Made by a program: the position numbers and the translations under genes. From positions 1-27,923 of the forward strand of contig JAHJOY010000186.1 of the NCBI GenBank assembly GCA_018819665.1: a stretch of DNA of 27,923 nucleotides. Reading direction: 5' to 3'. Positions 160 to 17,216 of this stretch are shown here, one piece after another; the first letter of the stretch is position 1, and each line of letters opens with the position of its first letter. Below the pieces are notes generated by a model. That model was not told the DNA's origin and searched no databases. It saw only the letters and a program-made list of their open reading frames with translations. Origin of the DNA: a bacterium (GTDB lineage: Bacteria; Atribacterota; Phoenicimicrobiia; Phoenicimicrobiales; Phoenicimicrobiaceae).

Positions 160-609
160 ATGAAATGTCCTTATTGTGGTTATTACGATACCGGGGTAAT
201 TGAATCCAGGCACATAGAAAATGGATTAGTAGTTAGAAGAAGAAGAATTTGTAAAAAATGCAATAAAAGATTCACTACTTACGAAAGAATTGGTTTAATT
301 CCTCTGATGGTAATAAAAAAAGATGGTCGGAGGGAGCCTTTTTCTCGGGAAAAGATTACCAACGGTATTATCAAAGCCTGTGAAAAAAGACCAATTAGTA
401 TAGAGACTATAAATAATTTAGTAAACAACATAGAAGAGATCATAAAAAGTGAAGGAGTGGATGAAATTAAGAGTAATCTAATTGGAGAATTGGTTATCTC
501 CAGATTACGAGATTTAGATGAAGTAGCTTACGTAAGATTTGCCTCAGTATACAGGCAGTTTAAAGATCTAAGCAGCTTCGTAAAAGAGATAAGGAAGATT
601 ACCAAATAG
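160..609 (+). CDS. nrdR: Transcriptional repressor NrdR
   Basis: MKCPYC...RRRICKKCNKRFTTYE Zn ribbon, KKDGRRE ATP-cone, DEVAYVRFASVYRQF. Confidence 0.98.
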   Translation: MKCPYCGYYDTGVIESRHIENGLVVRRRRICKKCNKRFTTYERIGLIPLMVIKKDGRREPFSREKITNGIIKACEKRPISIETINNLVNNIEEIIKSEGVDEIKSNLIGELVISRLRDLDEVAYVRFASVYRQFKDLSSFVKEIRKITK

Positions 610-656
610 AAAAAATAATTTAATTTAACAACTATATTTTATAATGAGGTTTCAAA

Positions 657-3083
657 ATGATACAGACCATCAAAAAGAGAGAAGGCCAATTAGTAGAATT
701 TGATAAAAAGAAGATAACCGAAGCTATTTTTGCTGCTATGTTAGCAGCAGGAGAAAAAAATAAAACTATATCAGAAAAAGTAACCGATCAGGTAATTATA
801 AAATTAGAAAAAAGATTTAAGGATAAGGTTCCGCAAGTAGAAGAAGTTCAGGATGTAGTAGAAGAGGTCTTAATTAGAGAAGGCATGGTAAAGGTTGCAA
901 AGGCCTATATTTTATATCGGAATAAAAGGAGTAGAATTAGAGAGAGCTTAAAAGTTAGAAAAAAGGTAGAAAACCATGAAAGCACAACTGATCTTTCTCT
1001 GTTGGTTTCCACTCCAACCTCTGAGAATATTTCCCCCTGGGATAGGCAAAAAATTATTCGAGCTTTAGTTAAAGAAGCGGAGCTGCCTTTAAATGTTTCT
1101 ACAAAGATAGCCAAGGCAGTAGAAAAAAAGATAGTCGATTTATGCTTGAGCGAGATTTCCACCTCCTTGATTAGAGAATTGGTTGACAATGAACTGTTTA
1201 ACAGAGGATATGAACATAAGTGGAGAAAGCAAAAGATCATCGGGATGCCTACCTTTGATTTAAAACAATTATTCTTGTCCAAGAGCAAAGAAAATAGTAA
1301 TATTGGAACCAATAATCCGGAAGCTATAAATTTGACCATTGCTGAAAATACTATCAAACAATATATGCTACAGGAAGTTTTTTCCAAAGAAGTATCTAAT
1401 GCCCATTTAAAAGGCTGGATTCATATTCATGATTTGGGCTACCCAAGAATTTATTGTTCCGGTCATTCTCTCGAATTTTTAAAAAAATATGGTCTTGAAT
1501 TAGAAAATTTAGATACTTCTTCCGCCCCGGCCAGGCATACCAGAACCTTAACCGGACATTTAAACACTTTTCTGGCTTCTATGCAGGCCTATTACGCGGG
1601 CGCTTTAGGTATTGGTTATTTAAATATTATGTATGCCCCCTTTTTGGTAAATCTGCCTTTTAAAGAAATAAAACAAGAAGCTCAATATTTAATATTTAGC
1701 GGTTCACAAAATGCCTTTTCAAGAGGAGGGCAGAGTCTTTTCCTGGATTTCAATGTTCACCTCGATATTCCCCACTATCTTAGAAATATACCGGCAATCG
1801 GACCGGGAGGGAAATATACCGGAAAAACTTATGGAGAATACGAGAAAGAATCCCAACTATTTTTAAGGGCTTTGATGGAGGTTTGGAGAGAAGGGGATTA
1901 CCACGGAAAAGTTTTTGCTTTTCCTAAAATGGATCTGCACATCGATAGCAAATCTTTCGAGGACCCAGAACAGAAAAAATTATTAAAATATGCCTGTGAA
2001 ATAGCTTCTGAGAACGGTTCACCTTATTTTATTTTTGATAGGGAAGATATAAGTTTGGCCGCTTGCTGCCGATTAAAAACAGAGATAACCGATCAAGAAA
2101 TGATACAGTATCCGGAAAAGTTAAGATTTGCCGGAATACAGAATGTTACCATCAACCTGCCTCAATGCGCCTATAGGACCTTTCCTAATAATAAAATTTC
2201 CGGATCTTCTCTTAATTTGAACGATGAAGATAATTTAAAATTATTTTTCGAAAAAACCGATCAGGCTTTATGTTTGGCGGTTCGAGCTCATTTACAGAAG
2301 AAAAAGTTTTTAGAGATGATGATGGAAAATCCCAGCGGACCTTTATGGCAGATAGGCAAGATAGCCCAGGATGGCAGACCTTACGTAAATTTAGATGAAG
2401 GAACTTACTTAATAGGATTAATCGGATTGAACGAAGCAGTCCAGCATATTACCGGTAAACAACTGCATGAAAGCGAGGATGTTTTTAAGTTAGGGTTAAA
2501 AATTGTATCTTTTATGAGTTTAAAATGCAGAGAGTATAGTGAGAAGTTTAATTTAAAATTATCCTTAGAGGAATCTCCCGCTGAAAGCGCGGCGGGAAGG
2601 TTAGCTAAAATCGATTTACAGGAATTTCCAGATAGTAAAAAAGTTATAAAAGGAAATTCCAATGGAGACGAAAGTTATTATACCAATAGTATCCATTTTG
2701 CTGCTTCAGCGCCGGTAGATTTGATCACTCGAATTATTAAACAGAGTAAGTTCCATCCTTTAATCAAGAGCGGGGCGATAATTCATGCCTTTGTAGGAGA
2801 AAGTCGACCTTCACCAGAGAGTATCTATAATTTAGTTAAAAAAGTTTGGGAACATACTCAGTGTTCTCAACTTACTATTTCGCCTGAGTTTACCATATGC
2901 AATACCTGTAGTGAAGTTAGCAGAGGATTACAGGAGGATTGTAATGGATGTGGGAGTGAAGATGTATATGGAGTAACCAGGATAGTGGGATATTATAGCA
3001 AAATAACTAACTGGAATAAAAATAAGATCGGTGAACTAAAAGACCGACATTCCGGAAATTATAAAGTTAAAAGTAAAATTTAG
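657..3083 (+). CDS. nrdD: Anaerobic (class III) ribonucleoside-triphosphate reductase
   Basis: N-terminal ATP-cone (IKKREG), IHIHDL, IYCSGH, AACCRL, EESPAES, CxxC-x10-CxxC Zn site, glycyl radical loop TRIVGYY. Confidence 0.96.
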   Translation: MIQTIKKREGQLVEFDKKKITEAIFAAMLAAGEKNKTISEKVTDQVIIKLEKRFKDKVPQVEEVQDVVEEVLIREGMVKVAKAYILYRNKRSRIRESLKVRKKVENHESTTDLSLLVSTPTSENISPWDRQKIIRALVKEAELPLNVSTKIAKAVEKKIVDLCLSEISTSLIRELVDNELFNRGYEHKWRKQKIIGMPTFDLKQLFLSKSKENSNIGTNNPEAINLTIAENTIKQYMLQEVFSKEVSNAHLKGWIHIHDLGYPRIYCSGHSLEFLKKYGLELENLDTSSAPARHTRTLTGHLNTFLASMQAYYAGALGIGYLNIMYAPFLVNLPFKEIKQEAQYLIFSGSQNAFSRGGQSLFLDFNVHLDIPHYLRNIPAIGPGGKYTGKTYGEYEKESQLFLRALMEVWREGDYHGKVFAFPKMDLHIDSKSFEDPEQKKLLKYACEIASENGSPYFIFDREDISLAACCRLKTEITDQEMIQYPEKLRFAGIQNVTINLPQCAYRTFPNNKISGSSLNLNDEDNLKLFFEKTDQALCLAVRAHLQKKKFLEMMMENPSGPLWQIGKIAQDGRPYVNLDEGTYLIGLIGLNEAVQHITGKQLHESEDVFKLGLKIVSFMSLKCREYSEKFNLKLSLEESPAESAAGRLAKIDLQEFPDSKKVIKGNSNGDESYYTNSIHFAASAPVDLITRIIKQSKFHPLIKSGAIIHAFVGESRPSPESIYNLVKKVWEHTQCSQLTISPEFTICNTCSEVSRGLQEDCNGCGSEDVYGVTRIVGYYSKITNWNKNKIGELKDRHSGNYKVKSKI

Positions 3084-3100
3084 GAAAGAGTGAAAATACC

Positions 3101-3355
3101 ATGAAAATAAAAATATTCTGGCAAAAAAACTGTCCTCATTGTCCGGAAGCCAAAAATCTGGGAAAACAATTGGAAAAAGAGAGGGAGGTTCAATATTTTG
3201 ATGTAGATACGGTTGATGGTCTGGCGGAAGCAAGTTATTATGATATTGCATCCACTCCTTCTATAGTAGTCTTAGACAATAATGATAATGAGATCAAAAT
3301 ATGGAGAGGAAAGACCCCTCGCTTGGAGGAAATTAGAGAGGAAGCAGCAATTTGA
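3101..3355 (+). CDS. Small thioredoxin/glutaredoxin-like (NrdH-type) redoxin
   Basis: 84 aa, CPHC active site, cis-Pro motif STPSIVV, lies between nrdD and nrdG. Confidence 0.85.
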   Translation: MKIKIFWQKNCPHCPEAKNLGKQLEKEREVQYFDVDTVDGLAEASYYDIASTPSIVVLDNNDNEIKIWRGKTPRLEEIREEAAI

Positions 3356-4062
3356 ATATTACCATAAAACAAATGATTGAGACCTCTCTGATTGATTGGG
3401 AGGGGAAAATTGTTTCTACTTTGTATCTCCCTTTATGTAATTTTAGATGTCCCTTCTGCTATAATTGTGATTTAATATTACATCCGGATAATTTTAAAAA
3501 TATTCCTCAAAAAGAAATAGACAGTTATCTTTTAGAGAGAAAAGATTTTATCGATGGCATATGTATGAGTGGAGGAGAGCCCACCCTATACCCCGATTTA
3601 CCTGTATATTTTAAAGGAATAAAGGATAAAGGTTTTTTAATAAAGCTGGATACTAATGGTACTAATCCGAAATTATTAGAAAATCTCATAGATTTTGGTT
3701 TGGTGGATTATATTGCCCTGGATATTAAGTCATCATTAGATTTTGGTAATTATTCTAAAGCCGCGGGTATTATAGATAAGATGATGATGGAGAAGGTAAA
3801 AAATAGTATTGAATTAATAATGAACTCAAAAATTGATTATGAATTTCGTACTACTGTCGTGCCTTTATTGCACTCCGATGAGACTATTATGGAAATTGCT
3901 AGGTATATTGCTGGGGCAAAAAAATATGTCTTACAAAATTTCTCTCCTTTAGAGAAGACCCTCGATCCTTCTTTTCAAAAAATAAAACCCTATTCTGATG
4001 AAAAGATTCAGGAATTATCGGAAAAAGCCAAAAAATATGTTCCCAATTGTTGTTGGAGATGA
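3352..4062 (+). CDS. nrdG: Anaerobic RNR activating radical-SAM protein
   Basis: CNFRCPFC radical SAM motif, SGGEPT, KLDTNG, YEFRTT; TTG start overlaps upstream TGA. Confidence 0.93.
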   Translation: MNITIKQMIETSLIDWEGKIVSTLYLPLCNFRCPFCYNCDLILHPDNFKNIPQKEIDSYLLERKDFIDGICMSGGEPTLYPDLPVYFKGIKDKGFLIKLDTNGTNPKLLENLIDFGLVDYIALDIKSSLDFGNYSKAAGIIDKMMMEKVKNSIELIMNSKIDYEFRTTVVPLLHSDETIMEIARYIAGAKKYVLQNFSPLEKTLDPSFQKIKPYSDEKIQELSEKAKKYVPNCCWR

Positions 4063-4167: not shown

Positions 4168-4356
4168 TCTGGATGAAAGTAATGGGAGAGGTCTTTTCTG
4201 TTACGGAGAAGAAGCCGAAGGGGCAAGATGTATGATACATTTAAACTCTCAGGCAAAAGGACCATTGCCGGACAGAACTCTGGAAGGTTTTTTAATAAAC
4301 ACCGAAGGGGTAATTTCCAATATTCTGGAAAAATCTCTCAGGTAAAAAGACAGGGT
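4168..4356 (+). ncRNA. Tandem glycine riboswitch (two aptamers plus leader)
   Basis: Aptamer 1: GGAGAG...GCCGAAGGGGCAA...AAACTCTCAGGCAAAAGGAC with P1 gtaatgg/ccattgc. Aptamer 2: CTCTGGAAGG...CACCGAAGGGGTAA...AATCTCTCAGGTAAAAAGACAGGG. GGATGAA leader at 4171. Confidence 0.93.
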
Positions 4357-4389
4357 AAGAAATTCCGTTGGAGTATCTTACCCTTTTTT
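4352..4389 (+). terminator. Intrinsic terminator, riboswitch expression platform
   Basis: agggtaaga (4352-4360) / tcttaccct (4376-4384) 9-bp stem followed by T-tract; 5' arm overlaps the 3' P1 strand of aptamer 2. Confidence 0.85.
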
Positions 4390-4440
4390 ATTTTGATACA
4401 GTATAAGTAGTAAAAAATATTTGCAAAAAGTAGAGATAAT

Positions 4441-5268
4441 TTGAACCAGGATTTTGAATTAAAAGAACTTGGACAAATAAAATATTTCAACTGTAGAGAA
4501 TTGGACAACACCAACTTAGTAGTAAATGCTTTTACTACTCGAACAGGTGGGGTAAGCAGAACCCCCTTTGATAACCTTAATTTATCCTATAATGTAGGTG
4601 ATGAAGAAAGCCGCGTAGCAGAAAACAGAAAAATAATTTTAGATTCTTTAAACATTGATTATCGAACCACGATAACTGCCCAGCAAGTCCATAAAGATAA
4701 AATAAGCTTAGTAAGAAAAGAAGATAAAGGTAAGGGAGCCTTTAAATATTCTAAGGGAATCGCACAAACCGATGCCTTAATTACAGATATCCCCGGTATA
4801 CCGCTTCTAATGTGTTATGCTGATTGTGTACCTATTTTTATTTTAGACCCTGTCAAAAAAGCTATTGCCCTAATTCATAGTGGAAGAAAGGGAACAGAAT
4901 TGGAATTAACCTTAAAAACTTTGTTCAAGATGAAAAAAATCTTTGAGAGCCATCCCCGCTCCTGCTTAGCTGCCATTTTTCCCTCCATTGGTCCCTGCTG
5001 TTATTGCATTAAAGAGGAAAATAAAATTGATGATTATTGGTTAAATGAAATTAAATATAATGGTGAACCAATTTCCCTGCAAAACAAGAGCGGGAGGAGC
5101 CTTGATTTAAGAAAAGCAAACTATGGGCAATTAATTAAAGGAGGAGTGGAGGAAAAGAATATTTTTGTTAATGAGATTTGTACGGCAGATTACCCTGAAC
5201 TTTTCTTTTCCTACCGAAGGGATAAGGGAAATACCGGCCGTATGGCCGCTATCTTTATGTTAAAGTAA
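4441..5268 (+). CDS. pgeF: Peptidoglycan editing factor / purine nucleoside phosphorylase (YfiH/YlmD family)
   Basis: FTTRTGGVS, NLNLS, QQVH, DALIT, ADC, HSG, FFSYRR, GRM; His-Cys-His triad present; TTG start. Confidence 0.93.
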   Translation: MNQDFELKELGQIKYFNCRELDNTNLVVNAFTTRTGGVSRTPFDNLNLSYNVGDEESRVAENRKIILDSLNIDYRTTITAQQVHKDKISLVRKEDKGKGAFKYSKGIAQTDALITDIPGIPLLMCYADCVPIFILDPVKKAIALIHSGRKGTELELTLKTLFKMKKIFESHPRSCLAAIFPSIGPCCYCIKEENKIDDYWLNEIKYNGEPISLQNKSGRSLDLRKANYGQLIKGGVEEKNIFVNEICTADYPELFFSYRRDKGNTGRMAAIFMLK

Positions 5269-5340
5269 TAATAAAATGATTGCAATCCAAAAAGTAAACA
5301 AAATAGTAATGTAATCATATTAAAATATAGGGAGGAAGGT

Positions 5341-5646
5341 ATGCGGATAAAAGAGCATCCCATTTTGGAATTTAATCAGAAAGAAAAGATAAAATTCACC
5401 TTAGATGGGGAAGAATTAGAGGGCTATAAGGGTGAACCCATTGCTTCTGCCCTGGTGGCTGCCGGAGTAAAGGTGTTAAGCAGAAGCATTAAATATCACC
5501 GCCCCAGAGGATTTTTTTGTGCCATAGGAAAATGTTCAGCTTGTCAAATGAAAGTAAACGGTATTCCCAACATCAGAACCTGTGTAACTAAATTAGAAGA
5601 AGGGATGAAAGTAGAAACTCAAAAAGGGAAAGGTGATTTTAAGTGA
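5341..5646 (+). CDS. 2Fe-2S protein (HcnA-like / N-terminal domain of sarcosine oxidase or proline dehydrogenase alpha)
   Basis: GEPIASAL, HRPRGFFCAIGKCSAC...NIRTC; strong RBS ggaggaagg. Confidence 0.88.
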   Translation: MRIKEHPILEFNQKEKIKFTLDGEELEGYKGEPIASALVAAGVKVLSRSIKYHRPRGFFCAIGKCSACQMKVNGIPNIRTCVTKLEEGMKVETQKGKGDFK

Positions 5647-6743
5647 AAATGACCGATATAGCAATTATTGGAGGAGGTCCCGCAGGATTATCAGCAGCAA
5701 TTTATGCTGCTTCCTTAGGGGCAAAAGTAATTCTTATTGACGACGGTTTAGAACTCGGTGGACAGTTAATTAAACAGACCCATAAATTTTTTGGTTCCGA
5801 AAAACAGTTTGCCGGGATCAGAGGCATAGAGATTGCCAAAAAGATGATCCAGGATATCAAGGAATATGACAATATTGAAGTCATCGCCAATGCTACAGTC
5901 ACCGGCCATTATGAAGATGAGGTCATTACCATTGTCCAGGGAGTTAATGGTGATATATTAAAAAAAATAAAGGCCAACAGAATTATTGTAGCTACCGGTG
6001 CATCAGAGAATATGCTGCCTTTTGTAAATAACGACTTGCCTGGAGTCTATGGTGCCGGGGCGGTGCAGACCTTAATGAATCTTTACGGCGTAGTCCCGGG
6101 TAATAATATTTTAATGGTCGGGGCAGGCAATATCGGTCTGATTGTAAGCTACCAGCTCCTGCAAGCCGGGATTAAGGTAGAGGCAATAGTGGAAGCCCTT
6201 CCCAAGATAGGCGGATATCTGGTGCATGCCTCTAAGATTAGACGTTTGGGAGTACCTATCTATACTTCTCATTCTCTTAAAGAAGTTTATGGTACAGACT
6301 GTGTAGAAAAAGCCGTAATTTCTAAAATTAATAAAAATTTTGAATTTATTCCGGGGACAGAAAAAGAACTTCAAGTTGACACTATCTGCTTAGCTATAGG
6401 CTTATCTCCACTTTCTGATCTGCTCTGGCAGGCCGGTTGTCAGATGAAGTATATTTCTGAACTTGGAGGCTATGTTGCTTTAAGAGATGATAATATGAAA
6501 TCAAGTTTAAAAAATATTTATATTGCTGGAGATGTAGCCGGCATCGAAGAAGCCAGTAGTGCGATGTTAGAAGGACAAATTGCTGGTTTAAATGCTGCCA
6601 CGAGCTTAGGATATAAATGTGATAATTTTACAAAGTTAAATAAAAGCTTAAAAGCAGAATTAAAAGAATTGCGAGCTAACCCTTTAAGTGAAGAGATAAA
6701 GATAGGTATGGAAAAAGCCCTGATAAAGGAGGGGAAGGATTAA
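5643..6743 (+). CDS. NAD(P)/FAD-dependent oxidoreductase (proline dehydrogenase alpha / HcnB-like)
   Basis: GGGPAGLSAA, LGGQL, ATGA, NDLPGV, GAGNIG, IYIAGD. Confidence 0.9.
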   Translation: MKMTDIAIIGGGPAGLSAAIYAASLGAKVILIDDGLELGGQLIKQTHKFFGSEKQFAGIRGIEIAKKMIQDIKEYDNIEVIANATVTGHYEDEVITIVQGVNGDILKKIKANRIIVATGASENMLPFVNNDLPGVYGAGAVQTLMNLYGVVPGNNILMVGAGNIGLIVSYQLLQAGIKVEAIVEALPKIGGYLVHASKIRRLGVPIYTSHSLKEVYGTDCVEKAVISKINKNFEFIPGTEKELQVDTICLAIGLSPLSDLLWQAGCQMKYISELGGYVALRDDNMKSSLKNIYIAGDVAGIEEASSAMLEGQIAGLNAATSLGYKCDNFTKLNKSLKAELKELRANPLSEEIKIGMEKALIKEGKD

Positions 6744-6745
6744 CC

Positions 6746-7240
6746 ATGTTAGAAAGAACTGGCATACCAACCGATGATGATTTAGAAAAAGTAATTCCGA
6801 ATAAAGAAAGATTAGCAAAAGGACCAGTAGTCATAATAGAATGCTTTCAGAAGATACCCTGTGACCCTTGTGCCATATCCTGTAAACTTGGGGCAATAAA
6901 ACCCTTTAAAGATATAAACGATTTACCTCAGGTCGATTTTGATAAGTGTACCGGATGCGGGATTTGTATCAGTTCCTGCCCCGGTCTGGCCATATTCGTA
7001 ATAGACGAGAATTATTCAGATGAAAAATCTTTAATCAAACTACCTCATGAAATGTTACCTCTACCCCAGAAAGGAGAAGAGATTTATGCCTTAGATAGGG
7101 CAGGAGAAACAGTTGGTAAAGCAAAAGTAGTAAAAGTCCTAAAGATTAAAAGTAAGACCAATATAATTTCCATATCAGTTCCAAAAAATATGGCCATGAA
7201 GATTAGAAGTATAAGAGCGGAGGATAAACGCAATGGATGA
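6746..7240 (+). CDS. 2x[4Fe-4S] ferredoxin-type subunit (proline dehydrogenase gamma-like)
   Basis: CFQKIPCDPCAISC and CTGCGICISSCP. Confidence 0.88.
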   Translation: MLERTGIPTDDDLEKVIPNKERLAKGPVVIIECFQKIPCDPCAISCKLGAIKPFKDINDLPQVDFDKCTGCGICISSCPGLAIFVIDENYSDEKSLIKLPHEMLPLPQKGEEIYALDRAGETVGKAKVVKVLKIKSKTNIISISVPKNMAMKIRSIRAEDKRNG

Positions 7241-7505
7241 CAATGTAATAATTTGTCAGTGTGAAGATGTAACCTGGGGAGAAATTAGACAGGCCTTAGA
7301 AAAAGGTTATACTACCCTTGATGAAATTAAAAGGGTTACCCGAGCGGGAATGGGAAGATGTCAGGGCACGACTTGCCGTAGGATTATCTTAAGGGAAATC
7401 GCTAAGTTTTGCCATAAGAGCATAGAAGAGGTAGCTATACCTACCTTTAGGCCCCCCACCAAGCCGGTAAAATTAGGGACTCTGGCAGGTGATGACGATG
7501 ATTAA
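7233..7505 (+). CDS. BFD-like [2Fe-2S] subunit (proline dehydrogenase delta-like)
   Basis: ICQCEDVT...TRAGMGRCQGTTC...RPP. Confidence 0.88.
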   Translation: MDDNVIICQCEDVTWGEIRQALEKGYTTLDEIKRVTRAGMGRCQGTTCRRIILREIAKFCHKSIEEVAIPTFRPPTKPVKLGTLAGDDDD

Positions 7506-8640
7506 AAGAGCAAGTGTGGTAATAATTGGTGGAGGAGTTATCGGTTGCAGCATTGCTTATAATTTGGCTAAATTGGGATGTAAAGATGTAGTGTTGTTCG
7601 AGAAAAATAGTCTATCCAGCGGAGCTACCGGAAGATGTGGAGCAGGGATCAGACAACAATTTGGTACCAAGATGAACTGTATCCTTGCTCGAGAAAGTAT
7701 TAAAATATTTGAAAATCTAAGTCAGGAGCTGGACTATGATATTGAGCTCAACCAAGGTGGTTATCTTATACTGGCTTACACCGAAAAAGAAGTAAATCAG
7801 TTTAAAAAGAATGTTGCCTTAGAGCGATCTTTAGATATTGATGCCCGATTTATCTCAGTTGATGAAGCAAAAGAAATTGTCCCTCCTCTAAATGCCGAAG
7901 GAATATTAGCTGCCACTTTTTGTCCCACCGATGGACATGCCAATCCCTTTAAAACCAATTTTGCTTATGCGGAAGCTGCCCAAAGATTAGGTGTAAAGAT
8001 ATACACCTTTACTGAAGTAAAAGAGATTGGAACAGAAAACAATAAGATAGTGGCAGTTAAAACAGATAAAGAAAAGATATTAACTCCTATTGTAGTAAAT
8101 GCTGCCGGAGGATACTCAGGAACAATTGGAAAGATGGCTGGAGTAGATTTGCCAGTATATTCTCAAAGACACCAGATATTAGTTACTGAGCCTTTGGACC
8201 CTTTATTCAGACCGATGTTGATGTCTTTTTCCAGAAATTTCTATTGTCAACAGACTCCCCACGGTAGTATATTAATGGGCTGTGGAGATCCCAATGAGCC
8301 GAAAGGTTACGATATTGGCACAAGTTGGCAATTTGCTCGAGAAATTGCTCAAAAAATGACTACTATTGTGCCTCTATTAAAAGAGGTAAGTATGATTAGA
8401 CAATGGGCAGGATTGTATAATATGAGCCCAGATGCTCAACCAATCTTGGGTGAACACCCTCAAGTTGAAGGTTTTTACATGGCGATAGGATTTAGCGGAC
8501 ACGGATTTATGTTAGCTCCTGTAACCAGTAAACTTATTGCGGAGTTGATATTAGAAGGAAAGACTTCTCTTCCTATAGATAAATTAGATATAGGAAGATT
8601 CGAACGGGGTGAACTGATTATCGAACCCTCAGTAGTATAA
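7498..8640 (+). CDS. FAD-dependent amine/amino-acid dehydrogenase (DAO family; sarcosine oxidase beta / proline dehydrogenase beta)
   Basis: GGGVIG, GATGRCGAGIRQQF, WAGLY, PDAQP, GFSGHGFMLAP; start moved from 7489 to ATG 7498 on SD aggtg. Confidence 0.9.
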   Translation: MIKRASVVIIGGGVIGCSIAYNLAKLGCKDVVLFEKNSLSSGATGRCGAGIRQQFGTKMNCILARESIKIFENLSQELDYDIELNQGGYLILAYTEKEVNQFKKNVALERSLDIDARFISVDEAKEIVPPLNAEGILAATFCPTDGHANPFKTNFAYAEAAQRLGVKIYTFTEVKEIGTENNKIVAVKTDKEKILTPIVVNAAGGYSGTIGKMAGVDLPVYSQRHQILVTEPLDPLFRPMLMSFSRNFYCQQTPHGSILMGCGDPNEPKGYDIGTSWQFAREIAQKMTTIVPLLKEVSMIRQWAGLYNMSPDAQPILGEHPQVEGFYMAIGFSGHGFMLAPVTSKLIAELILEGKTSLPIDKLDIGRFERGELIIEPSVV

Positions 8641-8940
8641 GAAATAAAATAATAAAACTTATTTCATTCAATAAAAGAAGGGTTTTTTAATTTTTTGTAG
8701 AATATATATATGATAAATAGGTTAGGCAAAAAATAATCTACAGATGGTTTTTCTCAAAATTTAAAAAAGGTACCTAGTAACTGTAATTTTGTGAGTGACT
8801 ATTCTTACAGAAAAAAAAGGAGGTGAAAGGATTTCTTAAATAACTATATAATAGAAGTTACCTCTAATGTTATGGCTAATTAATTTGCTAAAATGATCTG
8901 TTTTTTTATGTATTTTAAAATAATTAAAGGAGAATTAAAA

Positions 8941-10107
8941 ATGAAAAGAATAAAATTTTTGTTAGTTATTAGTATGTTAGTATTGGCTCTTGGCGTAGCT
9001 TCTTTGGGAGTGATGGCTGCTGATAAACCACCGGTAGTAATCGGTCTTCAAGCTCCAATTACTGGTGCAGCCGCAATTGAAGGTGAAATGGCTAAACAGT
9101 CTGTAGAAATTGCAGCTCAAATGATCAATGAAAAGGGTGGAATTTTGGGTGGCAGAATGATTGAAATTAGAGTAGTTGATGATGCTTGTGAACCCAAACA
9201 AAGTGCTTTAGCAGCAACGAAGTTAACATCTCAGAAAGATGTAGTTGCTGCTATTCAAACCTACGGCTCTTCTATTACCCAGCCTGCTTCTGATATATAT
9301 GAAAAATATAAAAAAGTAAATATTGCTTATGGTGCAACTGTTACCGGTCTTACCGAAAGAGGGTTAAAGTATTTCTTCCGTACTTGTGGAAGAACCGATA
9401 CTCAAGGTGCATTTTTTGCAGATGAAGTCGTTCCCCTCTTTAATGCTAAAAAAATAGCCATTATGCATGATAACCTAACCTTCTCTTTGGGGCTTGCTGA
9501 AGATACCAAAAAATCCTTACAACCTAAGATAGATGCTGGAGAGGTAGAATTAGTCTACTTTGATGCAATTACACCCGGAGAATCTGATTATACTGTTCCT
9601 CTGACTAAATTAAGAGAAACTAATCCGGATATATTCTATTTCACCGGTTATTTCCCGGAAGCAGGATTAATAATCAGACAAGCCCGCGATATCGGAATTA
9701 CGGCAGTATTTGTAGGCGGAGATGCAGCCATTAATGAAGATTTCATTAATATTGCCGGTTTAGAGTATGCTGCAGGTTGTTATCAAACCCAGGAAGCCTT
9801 AATCGAATATTTTACCAACCCTGAAGCAATGGAATTTAAAGAAGCCTATAAGGCGAAATATAATACTCTTCCATCCAGCCCCTGGTCAGTTTATGCTGCC
9901 GATGCTCTCTGCGTACTTGCAGAAGCTATTGACAAATCTGGTTCCACCGATTCAGATGTCATCGCTGATTATCTGAGAAATAAGATGGATAAATTCCCCA
10001 GTATTACCGGTCCAATAAGTTTTGATGAAATTGGTGACCGTGTAGGAACCGGAATTAATCTTTATGTAGTAAACGCAGATGGAAGTTTCGGAATTTACGG
10101 AAAATAA
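8941..10107 (+). CDS. livK: Branched-chain amino acid-type ABC transporter substrate-binding protein
   Basis: Signal peptide MKRIKFLL...GVMA-AD, APITG, DDACEP, FFRT, DYTVPL, YAADA; RBS aaggag favours 8941 over 8893; substrate unknown. Confidence 0.88.
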   Translation: MKRIKFLLVISMLVLALGVASLGVMAADKPPVVIGLQAPITGAAAIEGEMAKQSVEIAAQMINEKGGILGGRMIEIRVVDDACEPKQSALAATKLTSQKDVVAAIQTYGSSITQPASDIYEKYKKVNIAYGATVTGLTERGLKYFFRTCGRTDTQGAFFADEVVPLFNAKKIAIMHDNLTFSLGLAEDTKKSLQPKIDAGEVELVYFDAITPGESDYTVPLTKLRETNPDIFYFTGYFPEAGLIIRQARDIGITAVFVGGDAAINEDFINIAGLEYAAGCYQTQEALIEYFTNPEAMEFKEAYKAKYNTLPSSPWSVYAADALCVLAEAIDKSGSTDSDVIADYLRNKMDKFPSITGPISFDEIGDRVGTGINLYVVNADGSFGIYGK

Positions 10108-10132
10108 AATAAAAATGAGGTAAGATACGAAG

Positions 10133-11044
10133 ATGAAAATCATATTAGAGCAGTTACTTAACGGATTGACCATAGGTTCATTTTATGCTCTTATTGCTCT
10201 CGGGTATTCCATGGTATACGGGGTAATGAAGCTGATTAATTTTGCGCACGGAGACTTATTTGCCCTGGGTTCTTATCTTGGATATACCCTTCTCGTATTT
10301 GGCTCTACCTATGTTACCGTCACCTTTGGTATATGGGGCGGTATGATTGCGGCTATGTTAATAGCCGCAATCGGCATAGGAATTGCCGGTACTTTAATAG
10401 AGCGAATTGCCTATCGTCCAATATATTCAGTAGGCCGGCTTCCCGCAGTAGTGTCTGCATTAGGTGCTTCAATTGTTATACAAAATGGGATAATGGTTGC
10501 TTGGGGCCCGCGCCCGCAAGCTTATCCCTCACAGGTTGTTCCTTCGATTATGTTAAATATTGGAGAGTTTAAAATTACTTTATTACAAGTTATAATTTTA
10601 TTGATTTCTTTTATGCTTATGGGACTTTTATATTATATTGTTCAAAAAACTACCTTTGGCGCAGCTATCCGTGCTTGTGCTTTGGATAGAGATACTGCCG
10701 CCTTAATGGGGATAAACATTGAAACAATTATATTTTTTATTTTTGCTTTAGGCCCGGCTTTAGGCGGAATGTCAGGAGTAATGGTAGGTATGTACTATAG
10801 GAAGATTAGTTTTATAATGGGATGGAATTATGGATTAAAAGCCTTTACTGCTACTATCCTGGGAGGTATCGGTAATATCCCGGGTGCAATGCTGGGAGGA
10901 CTTCTCCTGGGAGTATTGGAAATGTTAGGATCTGCCTACATTTCTACCGCTTATAAGGATGTGTTTGTATTTTTAGTTTTAATATTAGTATTAATTTTTC
11001 GCCCCAGAGGTCTTTTGGGTGAAAAAGTTGCAGAAAAAGTGTAA
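10133..11044 (+). CDS. livH: ABC transporter permease LivH
   Basis: NGLTIGSFYALIALGYSMVYG, NFAHG, GAAIRA, LGGIGNIPGA, RPRGLLG. Confidence 0.93.
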   Translation: MKIILEQLLNGLTIGSFYALIALGYSMVYGVMKLINFAHGDLFALGSYLGYTLLVFGSTYVTVTFGIWGGMIAAMLIAAIGIGIAGTLIERIAYRPIYSVGRLPAVVSALGASIVIQNGIMVAWGPRPQAYPSQVVPSIMLNIGEFKITLLQVIILLISFMLMGLLYYIVQKTTFGAAIRACALDRDTAALMGINIETIIFFIFALGPALGGMSGVMVGMYYRKISFIMGWNYGLKAFTATILGGIGNIPGAMLGGLLLGVLEMLGSAYISTAYKDVFVFLVLILVLIFRPRGLLGEKVAEKV

Positions 11045-11056
11045 AGGGGCGAAAAT

Positions 11057-12055
11057 ATGAAATTAAACAAAAATATAACAGAAAAAAATAGTATATTTAA
11101 AAATTGGATGGTTATCTTAGCAGCGATTTTATTTATAATATTACCTTTTATAATAAATGCTTATTGGGTAGATGTTTTATTTTTCTTCGGCATCTATGCT
11201 CTTTTGGGACTTAGTTTAAATATTGTTTTAGGAGAAGTGGGGCTTTTTGATTTAGGACATATTGGATTTATGGCTATCGGTGCTTACACTACCGCAATAC
11301 TTAATGCCACCTTTGGAATTCCTATAATTATTTTACTGCCAGTAAGTGCAATTGCAGCAGGTGCTTTTGCCTGGTTAGTCTGTTCTCCAATCATCCATTT
11401 AAGAGGAGATTACCTGTGTATCGTAACTATCGGGATGGGTGAAATTGTCCGGCTTACTTTAAACAATAATCCATTTGGAATTACCGGTGGTCCAAATGGG
11501 GTTTTCGGAATTGATTTTCCTTCATTGGGGAGTATCTTTGTAGTCGATAATTCTACTAAATTTTATTATTTCATATGGTTAATAGTCGGCCTAACCATCA
11601 TCGGTTTGGTTAATTTGCAGCGTTCGCGAATAGGAAGAGCCTGGAACTGCATCCGAGAAGATGAAATTGCTGCAGAAGCTACCGGGATTGATGTTAGGTA
11701 TTATAAGTTATTGGCTTTTGTTTTAGGAGCAGGTTTAGCCGGGGTTGCCGGTAATGTTTACGCTACTAAATTAATGATGGTTTCTCCGGAGAGTTTTAAC
11801 TTTATGGAATCCTGCATGCTCTTCTGTATTGTATTAATCGGAGGAATGGGTTCTATACCCGGAGTGTTAATCGGGGCTGCTGCCATCAGCCTTTTCCCGG
11901 AATTTTTCCGAACTTTCGCCCAATACCGAATGCTAATTTTTGGAGCAGCCATGGTGGCTATGATGGTCTTTAAACCCGGTGGTATTTGGCCCAGGAAAAG
12001 AGGAGCCGTTAAATTCAAATCACTTTTAATGAAAGCAGGAGATGAAAATGGCTAA
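11057..12055 (+). CDS. livM: ABC transporter permease LivM
   Basis: LRGDYLCIVTIGMGEI, TGGPNG, GRAW, REDEIAAEATG, GGMGSIPG. Confidence 0.93.
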   Translation: MKLNKNITEKNSIFKNWMVILAAILFIILPFIINAYWVDVLFFFGIYALLGLSLNIVLGEVGLFDLGHIGFMAIGAYTTAILNATFGIPIIILLPVSAIAAGAFAWLVCSPIIHLRGDYLCIVTIGMGEIVRLTLNNNPFGITGGPNGVFGIDFPSLGSIFVVDNSTKFYYFIWLIVGLTIIGLVNLQRSRIGRAWNCIREDEIAAEATGIDVRYYKLLAFVLGAGLAGVAGNVYATKLMMVSPESFNFMESCMLFCIVLIGGMGSIPGVLIGAAAISLFPEFFRTFAQYRMLIFGAAMVAMMVFKPGGIWPRKRGAVKFKSLLMKAGDENG

Positions 12056-12896
12056 AGACAATAATAGTATGGAAACAATGATAAGAACCAAACAAGCAAA
12101 TGAAGAAATAAATAAAATTAATAAAGTTGTTTTGCAAACCGATAAACTTACTAAAAAATTCGGCGGTTTAACTGCAGTAAACAATTTTGACCTTAAAGTG
12201 AGTCAAGGGCAAATAAGCAGCCTGATAGGCCCTAACGGAGCAGGAAAAACTACTGTTTTTAATGTAGTTACCGGCATATATAAAGCTGATGGTGGAAAAG
12301 TTGTCTTTAAGGGAGAAGACCTTGTCGGTAAAAAACCTCATCAGATTATAAAAAAGGGAATTGCGCGGACTTTTCAAAATATTCGACTTTTTTCCAATAT
12401 GACCTGTCTGGAGAATGTTATGGCAGGGCAGCACTGCCGTAGTAATGAGGGAACCTGGACTTCTATTTTACAAACTCCCGGACAAAAAAAAGAAGAATTG
12501 GAAATTAAGAAAAATGCTGAAGACCGCCTTAAACAGGTCGGATTATGGAAATATCGAGATGAATTAGCAAAAAACATTGCCTATGGTAATCAGAGAATGT
12601 TAGAAATAGGCCGAGCTTTAGCCTCTAATCCTGATTTATTAATTTTAGACGAACCAAGCAGCGGCCTAAATGATAAAGAATCTGAAGACCTGATAATATT
12701 TTTAAAATTCTTATTAAAGGAAGATTTAACTATTTTACTTATCGAACACGATATGAATGTAGTAATGGGAATTTCTCATTGGGTTACAGTAATGGACGAA
12801 GGTAAAAAAATTGCTGAAGGTTTGCCCGAAGATGTATATAGTAATCCTCAAGTAATTGAAGCTTACTTAGGCAAAGACGAAGAGGAGGAGGAATAG
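12048..12896 (+). CDS. livG: ABC transporter ATP-binding protein LivG
   Basis: FGGLTAV, GPNGAGKTT, RTFQN, LDEP, LIEHDM, EAYLG; SD aggag fits ATG 12048. Confidence 0.93.
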   Translation: MAKDNNSMETMIRTKQANEEINKINKVVLQTDKLTKKFGGLTAVNNFDLKVSQGQISSLIGPNGAGKTTVFNVVTGIYKADGGKVVFKGEDLVGKKPHQIIKKGIARTFQNIRLFSNMTCLENVMAGQHCRSNEGTWTSILQTPGQKKEELEIKKNAEDRLKQVGLWKYRDELAKNIAYGNQRMLEIGRALASNPDLLILDEPSSGLNDKESEDLIIFLKFLLKEDLTILLIEHDMNVVMGISHWVTVMDEGKKIAEGLPEDVYSNPQVIEAYLGKDEEEEE

Positions 12897-12900
12897 TAAT

Positions 12901-13638
12901 ATGACTACATTGTTGAAAGTAGAAGATTTAAAAATATTTTATGGTTCTATCGAAGCTCTTAAAGGAATTTCACTTACAGTTGATGAGGGTGAAATAGTTA
13001 CCGTATTAGGGGCAAATGGGGCCGGGAAAAGCACTCTTTTAAGGGCTATCTCCGGGTTATTGCCCATCCGCAGCGGAAAGATTAAGTTAGGTGACCAAGA
13101 ACTTAACAATGTTAAGGCATTCAAAATAGTTATGGGGGGCATTTCGCACGTACCCGAGGGTCGAAAAGTATTTGCAACTCTTACAGTCGATGAAAATCTT
13201 AATTTGGGTGCATATACTCGAAGAAAAGACAAAAAGAATATTAAAGAATCTAAAGAAAGGGTTTATGATTTATTTCCTATTCTTAAAGCGCGACGTAATC
13301 AATTATCCGGAACATTATCAGGTGGTGAACAGCAGATGTTAGCAATGGGAAGAGGTTTAATGAGCACCCCCCGCATCTTACTTCTGGATGAACCTTCTCT
13401 GGGTTTGGCTCCCTTATTAGTAAAACAAATTATCCAAATTATCCGTGAAATTAATAATCAGGGTATATCAATATTATTAGTAGAACAAAATGCCCGTAAA
13501 GCATTAAGTATCGCTGATAGGGGATATGTGCTGGAAACCGGGAATATTACTATTAGTGGATTAGCTTCCGAATTAAAGAGTAATAAAAAAGTCCAGGAGG
13601 CCTACCTGGGAGGCGCTGCCCTTAAGAAGAGAAAATAA
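12901..13638 (+). CDS. livF: ABC transporter ATP-binding protein LivF
   Basis: GANGAGKS, VPEGR, LSGGEQQMLAMGR, LDEPSLGLAP, VEQN. Confidence 0.95.
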   Translation: MTTLLKVEDLKIFYGSIEALKGISLTVDEGEIVTVLGANGAGKSTLLRAISGLLPIRSGKIKLGDQELNNVKAFKIVMGGISHVPEGRKVFATLTVDENLNLGAYTRRKDKKNIKESKERVYDLFPILKARRNQLSGTLSGGEQQMLAMGRGLMSTPRILLLDEPSLGLAPLLVKQIIQIIREINNQGISILLVEQNARKALSIADRGYVLETGNITISGLASELKSNKKVQEAYLGGAALKKRK

Positions 13639-13645
13639 AGTAATT

Positions 13646-13675
13646 AGCGTGGAGCGTATAGCGTATAGTGTATAG
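13646..13675. repeat. Heptamer array (AGCGTGG/AGCGTAT x4)
   Basis: agcgtgg agcgtat agcgtat agtgtat ag, just after the livF stop. Confidence 0.85.
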
Positions 13676-13760
13676 AAAAATATTCATAAGTATAAAAATA
13701 AGTTTTCGGTTATCAGTTTTTGGTGGAGCAGACGTTTTGCCTATAAAATAGTTCGTTAAT

Positions 13761-13790
13761 GTGGAGGGGTGTATAGCAATACACCCCTTA
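13761..13790. repeat. REP-like palindrome (family B)
   Basis: aggggtgtat-agca-atacacccct perfect 10-bp stem; relatives GTAGGGGCGTATT at 13979 and GTAGGGGTGTATTGTATACGCCCT at 24967. Confidence 0.75.
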
Positions 13791-13853
13791 ACTATTTACT
13801 AATAATCTTTTCTCTACTCGGTAATTTTTTCTGTCTCCCGTTTTCTCTTTCTT

Positions 13854-13954
13854 TACGCAATACGCGATACGAATATAAAATTATTGAAAAATGTTGCTAT
13901 TTTTGATATATTAAGCTTAAAATAGTATATAGTATGTAGTATTTAGTATATAGT
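13854..13954. repeat. Heptamer arrays flanking a promoter
   Basis: tacgcaa tacgcga tacgaat (13854-13874); agtatat agtatgt agtattt agtatat (13924-13951). Confidence 0.8.
13884..13912 (+). promoter_or_regulatory. Candidate promoter for phoU
   Basis: TTGAAA 13884-13889, 17 nt, TG-A-TATATT 13904-13912. Confidence 0.5.
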
Positions 13955-14140
13955 AAAGAAAATAAAAGAGAGAAAAAAGTAGGGGCGTATTACATAAAGT
14001 GTAAAGCTAAAAGCGCAAAACTGAATTCGTATCTAGTATCTCGTGAAGATGGTCAGCCGGTTGACCGGTTAGGAAAATAAGAGAAAGAAACCTAATTATA
14101 TATTATGTAGTAAAAAGAACAAAGTAAAAAAATCATACTT

Positions 14141-14216
14141 CCCTGGATTCCCGCGGAAGCGGGAATCCAGGGGTGAGAGATAAAAAAAGATGGATTCCCG
14201 TTTTCACGGGAATGAC
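14141..14216. repeat. Pair of ATTCCC-N8-GGGAAT (dRS3-like) palindromes
   Basis: 14-bp perfect stem ccctggattcccgc-GGAA-gcgggaatccaggg (14141-14172); ggattcccgttttcacgggaatgac (14192-14216); partial copy 25044-25062. Confidence 0.85.
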
Positions 14217-14274
14217 AAATGCCTATACGCTATACTGTTTACGATATACGAATAAATATAAAGGATTAAAGGTC

Positions 14275-14973
14275 ATGATTAGAAAAGAGAATATGAAAGA
14301 GAAAAAATTATATTTTGATAACGAACTTACCGGTTTAAAGGAAAGTCTGACAAAGATGGCAAATTTAGTCGAAGAAGCAATTGATATGTCTATAAAGTCT
14401 TTAGTTGAACAGGATTTGGATTTAGCGGCAAAGGTAATTGAAAATGATGATATAATTGATAAAATGGAATTAGATATCGAAGAACAGTGTTTGCAGATGA
14501 TTGCTCTACGTCATCCCATTGCCAAAAATTTAAGGATAATCGGCTGTGGTTATAAGACCGTATCTGACTTAGAAAGAGTAGCAGATCATGCCGTGAGTAT
14601 AGCCAAAGCCAGCCAATATCTATCTACCAAATCTATGGTAAAGCCCTTAATAGATATTCCCCGTATGGCTGAAATTGCTCAAAATATGTTGAAAGATGGA
14701 TTAAATGCCTATTTCAGCGGAGATGTAGAGTTGGCCAAGGAAGTATGGGTAAGAGATAAGATGGTTGACGATTTGGATAATCAGATATTTCGTGAACTCT
14801 TAACTTTCATGATGGAAGACCCCCATACTATCAGCAGAGCGATTCATTTGATTTTTGTTTCTAATAATATTGAACGGATTGCCGACCATGCTACGAATTT
14901 AGCAGAGAGGGTAGTATATATCGTTAACGGAGAAAGAATAAAAAATTATTCCAAAAACGATAAAGAAACATAG
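14275..14973 (+). CDS. phoU: Phosphate signalling/transport regulator PhoU
   Basis: Two PhoU repeats: DDIIDKME, P.AKNLR, DLERVADHA, DKMVDDL, NIERIADHATNLAERV; start 14275 or 14293 (track start 14173 runs through repeats). Confidence 0.92.
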   Translation: MIRKENMKEKKLYFDNELTGLKESLTKMANLVEEAIDMSIKSLVEQDLDLAAKVIENDDIIDKMELDIEEQCLQMIALRHPIAKNLRIIGCGYKTVSDLERVADHAVSIAKASQYLSTKSMVKPLIDIPRMAEIAQNMLKDGLNAYFSGDVELAKEVWVRDKMVDDLDNQIFRELLTFMMEDPHTISRAIHLIFVSNNIERIADHATNLAERVVYIVNGERIKNYSKNDKET

Positions 14974-15065
14974 AACATAAAACTTTAAGGTTAATTGAAT
15001 GAATGTTTTTGTTTTTTCTTTGACCGATCAGAAAGCAAAAAATAAATCAGAAAAGGTTATGAATT

Positions 15066-15752
15066 GTGGAAACAATTAAAAATAATTTGGAAGTAATAAA
15101 TGAAAAAATAAAAAAAGCAGCCTTAAAGGCGAACAGAAATCCTCAGGAAATAAAATTAGTAGCCGTAACCAAAACCGCTACCATAGAGCAAATAAAAGAA
15201 GCTATAAGTGCTGGGGTAAAAATAATTGGCGAAAATAAGGTTCAGGAAGCCAAAGAAAAATATCAAATTTTGAGTGCCGATATAGAGTGGCATTTAGTTG
15301 GACACCTGCAGACTAATAAGGTAAAATACGCTATAGAAATATTTGATCTCATTCACTCTGTAGATAGTATAAAATTAGCCAAAGAGATAGATAGACGTTC
15401 CCTGCAATTCGGGATGATTACCAATGTTTTGGTTGAGGTGAATGTTTCCGGGGAAGAAACCAAATACGGAATTAAATCGGAAGAAGTAGAACCTTTTCTA
15501 AAAGAAATATCTGAATTTTCCAGAATAAAGGTCAGAGGCTTAATGACTATTGCGCCAATAGCAGAAGACAAAGAAGAAGTTCGTCCATATTTTAGGAAGC
15601 TCAGGGAATTATCTAAAGAAATAAAGAGTAAAAATATAAAGAATGTTAAAATGGACTATCTTTCCATGGGGATGACTGATGATTTTGAGGTAGCTATTGA
15701 AGAAGGCGCTAATATGGTTAGAATCGGCAGAGGAATATTCGGGTTTCATTAA
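15066..15752 (+). CDS. yggS: PLP homeostasis protein (YggS/YlmE)
   Basis: LVAVTK, GENKVQE, WHLVGHLQTNK, GLMTI, LSMGMTDD, VRIGRGIFG. Confidence 0.96.
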   Translation: METIKNNLEVINEKIKKAALKANRNPQEIKLVAVTKTATIEQIKEAISAGVKIIGENKVQEAKEKYQILSADIEWHLVGHLQTNKVKYAIEIFDLIHSVDSIKLAKEIDRRSLQFGMITNVLVEVNVSGEETKYGIKSEEVEPFLKEISEFSRIKVRGLMTIAPIAEDKEEVRPYFRKLRELSKEIKSKNIKNVKMDYLSMGMTDDFEVAIEEGANMVRIGRGIFGFH

Positions 15753-15802
15753 TAAAATTATTACAACTATAAATTGATAAAAGCGGAGGGAAAATATTAT
15801 CT

Positions 15803-16072
15803 ATGCTTTTACTGATCCAAATAATTAACACAGTTTTCAGACTTTACAGTTATTTAATCTTAGCGAGGATATTTTTAACCTGGATACCCATAGATCCCTA
15901 TAACCCGGTGGTGCAGTTTATCTATAGAGTTACCGAACCGGTTTTAGCGCCCTTTAGGATTATATTGCCATTAGGGGGTGTAGGGTTAGATCTTTCTCCG
16001 ATAATTGTCTTTTTTTTACTAAACTTGCTCCAAAGAGCACTAATCAATATACTTGTTAGTATAGCTCTTTAA
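15803..16072 (+). CDS. yggT: YggT/YlmG membrane protein
   Basis: TWIP.DP.NP, VTEPVLAPFR, LDLSPII. Confidence 0.93.
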   Translation: MLLLIQIINTVFRLYSYLILARIFLTWIPIDPYNPVVQFIYRVTEPVLAPFRIILPLGGVGLDLSPIIVFFLLNLLQRALINILVSIAL

Positions 16073-16125
16073 AGTATATAAAATAAATTTAAATGATGAA
16101 ATATTAAATGAGGGAGGATAATTGA

Positions 16126-16698
16126 ATGAGAATTACACCAATGGATATCGAACAACAAGAATTTTCCAGGTCATTCAGAGGTTACAACGAAGAAGAAGTA
16201 GATGATTTCTTAGATAAGATAGTAAAAGATTACGAAGAATTAATCAATGAAAACGTAAGACTTAATGAAGAAATTGAGAGGATGCAAGAAAAATTAAAAG
16301 AGTTTAGTCAGATTGAAGAAACTCTAAGAAGCGCTTTGTTAAATGCCCAAAAATCAGCTGAAGAGATGAAGGGCAGGGTAGAAAGTGAAGCAAAGATAAT
16401 CATAGAAAAAGCAGAGATGGAAGCTAAGGCATTAAAACAACAGGTCTTTCAGAGAGAAGACCAAGTAAAAAATGAAATTGATAACCTGCGAAGATATAAA
16501 TTTATATTTAAAGAAAAATTTAAATCAATGTTGAATTTATACCTAAAAATGATAGAAAATGAGGAATTTGAGGAAGAAGGAAATTACGAGATTAAAGAGG
16601 ATAAGGTTTCTAAAGAAAAAACGGGTAAATTAGAAGGATTCACCGTAGAAAAAGATTCTAAAATCGAAGAAACAGAAGATGAGCAACGATATCAATGA
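16126..16698 (+). CDS. divIVA: Cell division protein DivIVA
   Basis: ITPMDIEQQEFSRSFRGYNEEEVDDFLD, then coiled coil and acidic tail. Confidence 0.93.
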   Translation: MRITPMDIEQQEFSRSFRGYNEEEVDDFLDKIVKDYEELINENVRLNEEIERMQEKLKEFSQIEETLRSALLNAQKSAEEMKGRVESEAKIIIEKAEMEAKALKQQVFQREDQVKNEIDNLRRYKFIFKEKFKSMLNLYLKMIENEEFEEEGNYEIKEDKVSKEKTGKLEGFTVEKDSKIEETEDEQRYQ

Positions 16699-16987: not shown

Positions 16988-17004
16988 GAACTCAGAATTC
17001 CAGG

Positions 17005-17032
17005 GTAGGGGCACGATGCATCGCGCCCCTAC
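17005..17032. repeat. GTAG-type REP palindrome (family A), single copy
   Basis: GTAGGGGCACGATGCATCGCGCCCCTAC. Confidence 0.85.
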
Positions 17033-17186: not shown

Positions 17187-17216
17187 TTGACATAAACCGA
17201 TTTAATATGCTATTAT
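17187..17216 (+). promoter_or_regulatory. Promoter of ileS leader
   Basis: TTGACA 17187-17192, 18 nt, TG-C-TATTAT 17208-17216. Confidence 0.75.

Follow-up and report, generated by a model that had tools for sequence, protein, structure and literature searches.

A five-gene flavoprotein dehydrogenase cluster behind a glycine riboswitch in Atribacterota is probably a bacterial form of the archaeal dye-linked L-proline dehydrogenase

What is oxidised by a flavin-dependent dehydrogenase whose subunits resemble those of an archaeal L-proline dehydrogenase and whose genes lie downstream of a glycine riboswitch? The question is raised by five genes at positions 5341-8640 of a 27,923-nt stretch of Atribacterota DNA (contig JAHJOY010000186.1 of assembly GCA_018819665.1), the whole of which is called the window here and gives all coordinates unless another contig or locus is named. 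An earlier note on this DNA had compared the cluster with the proline dehydrogenase of Thermococcales and had taken the riboswitch as a pointer to glycine or sarcosine as its substrate. Our sequence comparisons suggest, with a probability of roughly 0.68, that these genes code for the alpha-beta-gamma-delta dye-linked L-proline dehydrogenase in a bacterial version made of five polypeptides. Clusters of this kind form a widespread, biochemically uncharacterised bacterial family, of which this one is an ordinary member, and the link between riboswitch and dehydrogenase is a by-product of gene order particular to this lineage and does not indicate the substrate.

The five genes are packed tightly, neighbours overlapping or standing 2 nt apart, and each is preceded by a purine-rich ribosome-binding site. 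Their products include two flavoproteins, one of which carries binding motifs for both flavin adenine dinucleotide (FAD) and nicotinamide adenine dinucleotide (NAD):

5341-5646, + strand: A1, a [2Fe-2S] subunit of 101 aa (Pfam Fer2_4, E 2.5e-32), a stand-alone counterpart of the N-terminal domain of archaeal PdhA
5643-6743, + strand: A2, an FAD- and NAD(H)-binding flavoprotein of 366 aa that matches the body of PdhA (Pfam Pyr_redox_2, E 5.5e-36)
6746-7240, + strand: G, the gamma subunit, a PdhF-like, 8-Cys ferredoxin-like protein of 164 aa (Pfam Fer4 families)
7233-7505, + strand: D, the delta subunit, a PdhX-like, BFD-like [2Fe-2S] protein of 90 aa (SO_alpha_A3, PF17806, E 1e-16; Fer2_BFD, PF04324, E 1e-12)
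7489-8640, + strand: B, the beta subunit, a PdhB-like protein predicted to be the catalytic FAD dehydrogenase of the DAO family (Pfam DAO, E 1.4e-77)

The cysteines of A1 (residues 60, 65, 68 and 81; C-x4-C-x2-C-x12-C) fit one [2Fe-2S] centre, those of G form two four-cysteine motifs (C-x5-C-x2-C-x3-C and C-x2-C-x2-C-x3-C-P), and those of D (residues 8, 10, 43 and 48; C-x-C-x32-C-x4-C) make up a four-cysteine motif of the BFD type. GxGxxG motifs for FAD and NAD(H) stand at residues 10 and 160 of A2, and beta, which is 383 aa long from its GTG or 380 aa from an alternative ATG start at 7498, has a single GxGxxG at residue 14. The gene order and the domain types (2Fe-2S, FAD/NAD, ferredoxin, BFD and DAO) given in the earlier note are borne out by the open reading frame coordinates and the Pfam matches.

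The alpha-beta-gamma-delta enzymes of Thermococcales have L-proline-specific dye-linked activity, contain FAD, flavin mononucleotide (FMN), ATP and Fe as cofactors, and have an alpha subunit that is one polypeptide of ~54 kDa. Their genes stand in alpha-gamma-delta-beta order in T. litoralis and T. profundus (PMC4364671), the T. profundus enzyme being encoded by pdhA-pdhF-pdhX-pdhB (PMC4364671, PMC4575208), and this order was also found in seven Thermococci loci, six of them of the Thermococcales type, and in locus L134. The window cluster shares its subunit types, gene order, and FAD/NAD and Fe-S motifs with this type (T. profundus; P. horikoshii PDH2), and its subunits are 53-59% (A1, compared with the N-terminus of the fused alpha), 52-55% (A2), 41-46% (G), 38-47% (D) and 41-49% (B) identical to those of the Thermococcales clusters; the two are orthologous, and the claim that the window cluster mirrors the archaeal complex therefore stands. 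Among solved structures, the best match of beta is the beta of the other archaeal type, P. horikoshii PDH1 alpha4beta4 (PH1363/PH1364, PDB 1Y56), with 316 bits and E 2.8e-93 to 1y56_B over its whole length, whereas SoxB, DMGDH and ThiO structures reach ~150 bits or less at E near 1e-40 (ThiO, 136 bits). Unlike the window cluster, PDH1 has no gamma subunit and its alpha, which binds ATP, carries a fused delta-like domain; with the alpha4beta4-type alpha, A2 has no more than 23-26% identity.

Departing from the Thermococcales type, alpha in the window is divided between a 101-aa and a 366-aa polypeptide. In bacterial three-subunit relatives, the small [2Fe-2S] subunit matches the first ~120 residues of archaeal alpha (PMC4364671, PMC4575208), and A1 corresponds to the N-terminal ~100 residues of archaeal alpha, as do HcnA, OdhC and LhpE (PMC4575208), so the HcnA/HcnB-style split proposed earlier is well founded. 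Across the genomes compared, every resolved bacterial locus (87) has a split alpha and every archaeal one (eight) a fused alpha of 475-521 aa; the split alpha is therefore the normal bacterial form and no peculiarity of the window. The window cluster also differs from the Thermococcales enzymes in belonging to a mesophilic or sediment anaerobe and in its link to a Liv importer, joined in some genomes by pgeF and a glycine riboswitch.

The phylogeny of beta places it in the same family. The tree (115 rows; IQ-TREE quick mode, LG+G4, SH-aLRT) gathers the 16 Atribacterota rows into one clade with short branches (SH-aLRT 97), which lies inside a 91-row bacterial clade (SH-aLRT 99) holding clusters linked to delta-1-pyrroline-5-carboxylate (P5C) dehydrogenase, to aldehyde:ferredoxin oxidoreductase (AOR) and to prolidase. 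The next group out is an archaeal one with both proline dehydrogenase types of Thermococcales, and beta forms one clade with the Thermococcales enzymes (SH-aLRT 98). The earlier note had proposed a beta phylogeny with proline dehydrogenase beta, SoxB, HcnC, ThiO and LhpB; the grouping with the proline dehydrogenase betas in the proline-linked family came out, in a tree drawn without HcnC, LhpB, OdhB, SoxB and ThiO references. In addition, a set of 51 proline-linked betas has 79 columns with a conservation of 90% or more; 70 of these are kept by at least 90% of the Atribacterota betas, and the remaining nine are conservative (T/S, V/L, F/L, A/S, Q/E) or variable. Beta shows no sign of an altered active site.

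Other enzymes built from DAO-family subunits fit less well. Like heterotetrameric sarcosine oxidase SoxABDG, the cluster has A1, A2 and D sequences that align one after another along SoxA (TIGR01372 positions 13-100, 168-492 and 522-599) and a beta that aligns to SoxB; unlike it, the cluster lacks the folate-binding C-terminal half of SoxA as well as SoxD and SoxG, and has a ferredoxin subunit instead. An assignment to SoxB (TIGR01373, 212 bits against a cut-off of 529), to SoxA (TIGR01372, 173 bits against 1164, covering only 168-492 of 996) or to ThiO (TIGR02352, 158.7 bits against 250.8) was rejected, and the 25 best NCBIfam matches to beta include no HcnC model. HcnABC, LhpBEF and OdhABC share with the cluster a Fer2_4 protein of ~100 aa (C-x4-C-x2-C-x11-12-C), a flavoprotein of the pyridine-nucleotide type and a DAO catalytic subunit (PMC4575208); unlike the five-gene cluster, they consist of three subunits, carry the BFD-like domain as a fused part of the flavoprotein and lack a 2x[4Fe-4S] subunit. 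With its five genes, separate 8-Cys ferredoxin and separate BFD-like protein, the cluster does not have the HcnABC architecture. The betas of these three enzymes form subfamilies apart from archaeal L-proline dehydrogenase, to which the opine dehydrogenase subfamily BjOpnDH2 is close (PMC4575208).

The five-gene form is found in many anaerobic phyla, where its annotation goes no further than sarcosine oxidase beta or FAD-dependent oxidoreductase. A genome scan guided by an eight-sequence beta alignment gave 75 loci outside Atribacterota, with betas 50-62% identical, in lineages that include Bacillota, Thermotogota, Synergistota, Izemoplasmatales, Zixibacteria, Sumerlaeota and one Theionarchaea-like archaeon. 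The split A1-A2-G-D-B order was found in 64 of them, the remainder differing or ending at contig edges. An L-glutamate gamma-semialdehyde (P5C) dehydrogenase, an aldehyde dehydrogenase of ~540 aa, lies within a few kb in 26 of the 75 loci, usually 26-106 nt downstream, and its representative scores 800 bits against TIGR01236 (cut-off 614). It is replaced by a ferredoxin and an AOR at eight loci, a Xaa-Pro dipeptidase-like M24 peptidase occurs at seven, and an upstream sigma-54 activator at twelve, its best match being PrdR, under the PrdR cut-off. One locus (L085) joins livKHMGF, the five genes and P5C dehydrogenase. Together with the beta tree, the P5C dehydrogenase, prolidase and PrdR-like neighbours point to L-proline as the probable substrate of the family. 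In the window, proline would probably be imported by the adjacent LivKHMGF transporter and oxidised to P5C at the FAD of beta. From there, electrons could travel by way of the Fe-S centres in delta, gamma and A1 to the A2 flavin (FAD) and on to NAD+ and/or ferredoxin.

Within Atribacterota, beta is present in 41 of 86 genomes, all from two families of one order (26 of 29 in the first, 14 of 22 in the second). The order nrdD-nrdG-(pgeF)-A1-A2-G-D-B-livKHMGF is kept in 20 fetched loci, in all of which the Liv importer adjoins the five genes, complete wherever the fetched stretch or contig extends that far. The pgeF gene is missing from the locus in the second family and in one genus of the first. 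It is this gene, of the ylmD/YfiH family and with a role in the cell wall, and not the five dehydrogenase genes, that the riboswitch directly precedes in the window:

4169-4363, + strand: tandem glycine riboswitch, with aptamer 1 at 4173-4274 and aptamer 2 at 4270-4363
4352-4392, + strand: intrinsic terminator of the riboswitch expression platform, overlapping the 3' end of aptamer 2
4441-5268, + strand: pgeF, the first gene 3' of the riboswitch (Cu-oxidase_4, E 2.2e-69; TIGR00726, 163.8 bits against a cut-off of 141)

The two aptamers score 63.1 and 52.7 bits against RF00504 (gathering score 32), and the whole tandem 85.8 bits against RF03166, under the cut-off of that family. The terminator hairpin, GGGTAAGA...TCTTACCC, is followed by the T run TTTTTTATTTT and folds at -22.2 kcal/mol (z -4.25), with none of 200 shuffles equally stable; the overlap of the terminator with aptamer 2 makes an ON switch likely. 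The distribution of riboswitch and pgeF among relatives, which is descriptive only because the genomes are kin, is as follows:

Riboswitch present, always directly before pgeF: 9 genomes (G000, G044, G045, G049, G051, G052, G060, G061 and the L055 metagenome-assembled genome)
pgeF present, riboswitch absent in resolved sequence: 5 genomes (G035, G037, G042, G043, G057)
pgeF absent, riboswitch absent: 7 genomes
Riboswitch position falling in a 100-N scaffold gap: 2 relatives (L036:8400-8499, L044:8007-8106)

The riboswitch thus occurs in nine of the 14 resolved relatives that have pgeF at the locus and in none of the seven that do not. The gaps in the last two relatives, at or beside the riboswitch position, fit assembly breaks at a repeated element.

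Elsewhere in the lineage, glycine riboswitches are numerous and mostly precede genes outside glycine metabolism. In this Atribacterota family a genome may have as many as ten tandem copies (loci L177-L206; relatives G037, G045, G048, G056 and G060), standing before envelope genes (a CsgG/LpoB-like lipoprotein, a patatin-like lipase, and secreted surface proteins with PKD and Listeria-Bacteroides repeats) and before genes for cyclopropane-fatty-acid synthase, hybrid-cluster protein (Hcp), a sugar-type binding protein (SBP_bac_1), a SMODS-like NTase and fhs. The source genome of the window (1.73 Mb, 91% complete) has one other copy, before fhs (contig C36:5009-5209), whose aptamers are ~90% identical to those of the window, which suggests a recent spread within this genome. 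From its gene contexts, the glycine riboswitch is a general regulatory cassette in this lineage, and the set may form a glycine-responsive envelope or stress regulon. Because it has spread to so many unrelated genes, it is unusable for inferring a substrate, a negative lesson for the riboswitch field as far as this lineage is concerned.

The wider gene order of the window is nrdR, nrdD, nrdG, riboswitch, pgeF, the five genes, livKHMGF, a PhoU-domain gene, yggS, divIVA, yggU, ileS, lspA, lgt and rluD. A housekeeping block pgeF(ylmD)-yggS(ylmE)-divIVA-ileS-lspA-rluD is conserved in bacteria such as Bacillus. In the window this block spans 4441-22843, with the dehydrogenase, livKHMGF and PhoU module (5341-14973) between pgeF and yggS, and the module looks inserted into it, which makes it less likely that pgeF and the five genes are functionally connected.

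Several observations weigh against L-proline as the substrate in Atribacterota. P5C dehydrogenase was found neither in the source genome nor in 52 genomes of the order, and ProA is patchy (over the cut-off in five of 30 genomes), so that the fate of P5C is unexplained. The AOR genes of the source genome, considered as a stand-in for P5C dehydrogenase and rejected, are only 26-35% identical to the cluster-linked AOR, a level at which orthology is unsupported. In the literature searched, no assay of any bacterial member of the five-subunit family was found. The P5C/proline couple lies near -0.12 V, too positive for unaided NAD+ reduction, and a simple NAD-linked scheme is therefore incomplete. 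As to regulation, at least nine related genomes place the five genes behind the tandem riboswitch and in the same direction, and no strong terminator was found between pgeF and A1, a hairpin at 5235-5248 within the end of pgeF having only five pairs and a poor T run; glycine-dependent transcription of A1-B is thus plausible, and these genes, being downstream of riboswitch and pgeF, may be partly under its control. These regulatory features, the lack of P5C dehydrogenase in the order, and the existence of glycine oxidisers such as ThiO in the wider DAO family and HcnC as a further relative (PMC4575208) speak for an O2-independent glycine or sarcosine dehydrogenase that would be induced by glycine and pass electrons to NAD or ferredoxin. 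We consider such an enzyme improbable. The riboswitch always stands before pgeF and is absent from every relative without that gene, five resolved relatives have pgeF and no riboswitch, and the lineage puts the element before many genes unrelated to glycine. Belonging first to pgeF, it is weak evidence for glycine as substrate. It was also not found at the 75 loci of other phyla, searched with a regular expression and with our own covariance model, and in eight of them with a full Rfam scan, which returned FMN, cobalamin and purine riboswitches elsewhere in the loci; our model, narrow with an effective 1.95 sequences, gave outside Atribacterota only two weak, wrongly placed matches (L107, L061). 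The conserved columns of beta are not remodelled and its branches are short inside the proline-linked family, the genome already has GcvT and the riboswitch-controlled fhs for glycine catabolism, and the folate-binding domain of sarcosine oxidase alpha is absent. The earlier step from riboswitch to glycine or sarcosine is accordingly not supported.

The missing P5C dehydrogenase would also be accounted for if the complex oxidised a different imino or secondary-amine acid that enters through the Liv importer (hydroxyproline, D-proline, pipecolate or an N-alkyl amino acid, for instance) and whose product needs no such enzyme. Among relatives built on the same subunit plan, beta exchange has led to enzymes for D-hydroxyproline and for opines (PMC4575208), and the Atribacterota clade branches apart from the large P5C dehydrogenase-linked clade. 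Nevertheless, the 70 of 79 columns shared with proline-linked betas, a conserved neighbourhood in which no hydroxyproline or pipecolate pathway genes were seen, and a source genome in which no gene of the proline racemase/epimerase family was found make another substrate of this kind unlikely. The redox gap between proline and NAD+ speaks for a further scheme: the enzyme could run in reverse, or bifurcate or confurcate electrons, so linking the P5C/proline couple to NAD(H) and ferredoxin at once. In keeping with this are the presence of two flavoproteins (an NAD(H) motif being found in one of them), the 8-Cys ferredoxin-like subunit beside two [2Fe-2S] proteins, and hosts that are strict anaerobes. 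So is ProC, which 40 of 52 genomes from the order have (it was not found in the source genome, which is incomplete) and which makes P5C a metabolite there. On the other hand, the P5C dehydrogenase and prolidase neighbours elsewhere indicate a catabolic direction, and literature cited in PMC4575208 and PMC4364671 describes the archaeal enzyme as a dye-linked dehydrogenase whose alpha has NADH dehydrogenase activity, so that we give reversal or bifurcation little chance. L-Proline oxidation by the bacterial form of the archaeal enzyme thus remains the preferred assignment.

If this assignment is right, it would improve metabolic models of subsurface Atribacterota, which apparently live on imported amino acids, and it raises an energetic question, namely which acceptor takes the electrons of proline in a strict anaerobe. 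One speculative answer, to which we attach low odds, is that the five-subunit enzyme is a flavin-based confurcating or bifurcating proline:NAD+/ferredoxin oxidoreductase whose expression in JS1-type Atribacterota is wired to glycine as a signal of peptides or necromass; if true, confurcation or bifurcation would account for proline use by strict anaerobes that have neither quinones nor P5C dehydrogenase. Nothing relevant was found in the literature on Atribacteria with glycine riboswitches or proline dehydrogenase, nor in that on anaerobic enzymes of this type from bacteria.

Some further features of the genomes may be recorded. Glutamate dehydrogenase is present in the source genome alongside GcvT. 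Its sole Aldedh-family gene encodes a PduP/EutE-like acylating aldehyde dehydrogenase of the microcompartment type (L207, C43:1830-6032), which adjoins a PduT-like microcompartment shell gene and an RnfC/PrdC-like gene. Directly upstream of the riboswitch, nrdR, nrdD (anaerobic ribonucleotide reductase) and nrdG (its radical-SAM activase) occupy 160-4062, a synteny kept across the order. The importer downstream of beta is:

8893-13638, + strand: livKHMGF-type amino-acid ABC importer (one Peripla_BP_6, two BPD_transp_2 and two ABC_tran proteins)

No convincing terminator was found between beta and livK (z 0.16), and the binding protein matches LivK/LivJ and the broad-specificity Atu2422 (3ip5) about equally, at E ~1e-48 to 1e-50. 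Among archaea, clusters of the alpha4beta4 and alpha-gamma-delta-beta types lie side by side in many Thermococcales genomes (L169-L173), where the alpha4beta4-type beta beside the other cluster scores 767 bits to 1y56_B, and a protein search with the beta of L134 returned only Theionarchaea-, Methanofastidiosa- and Bipolaricaulota-like proteins. A Synergistota locus (L096:4960-7218) has two tandem beta genes after A1-A2-G-D, recalling the beta-subunit exchange of opine dehydrogenases. In the second Atribacterota family, eight genomes (G064, G065, G073, G074, G078, G079, G082 and G084) carry a second DAO-family paralogue that is 37-40% identical to beta, and some of these paralogues contain an in-frame TAA.

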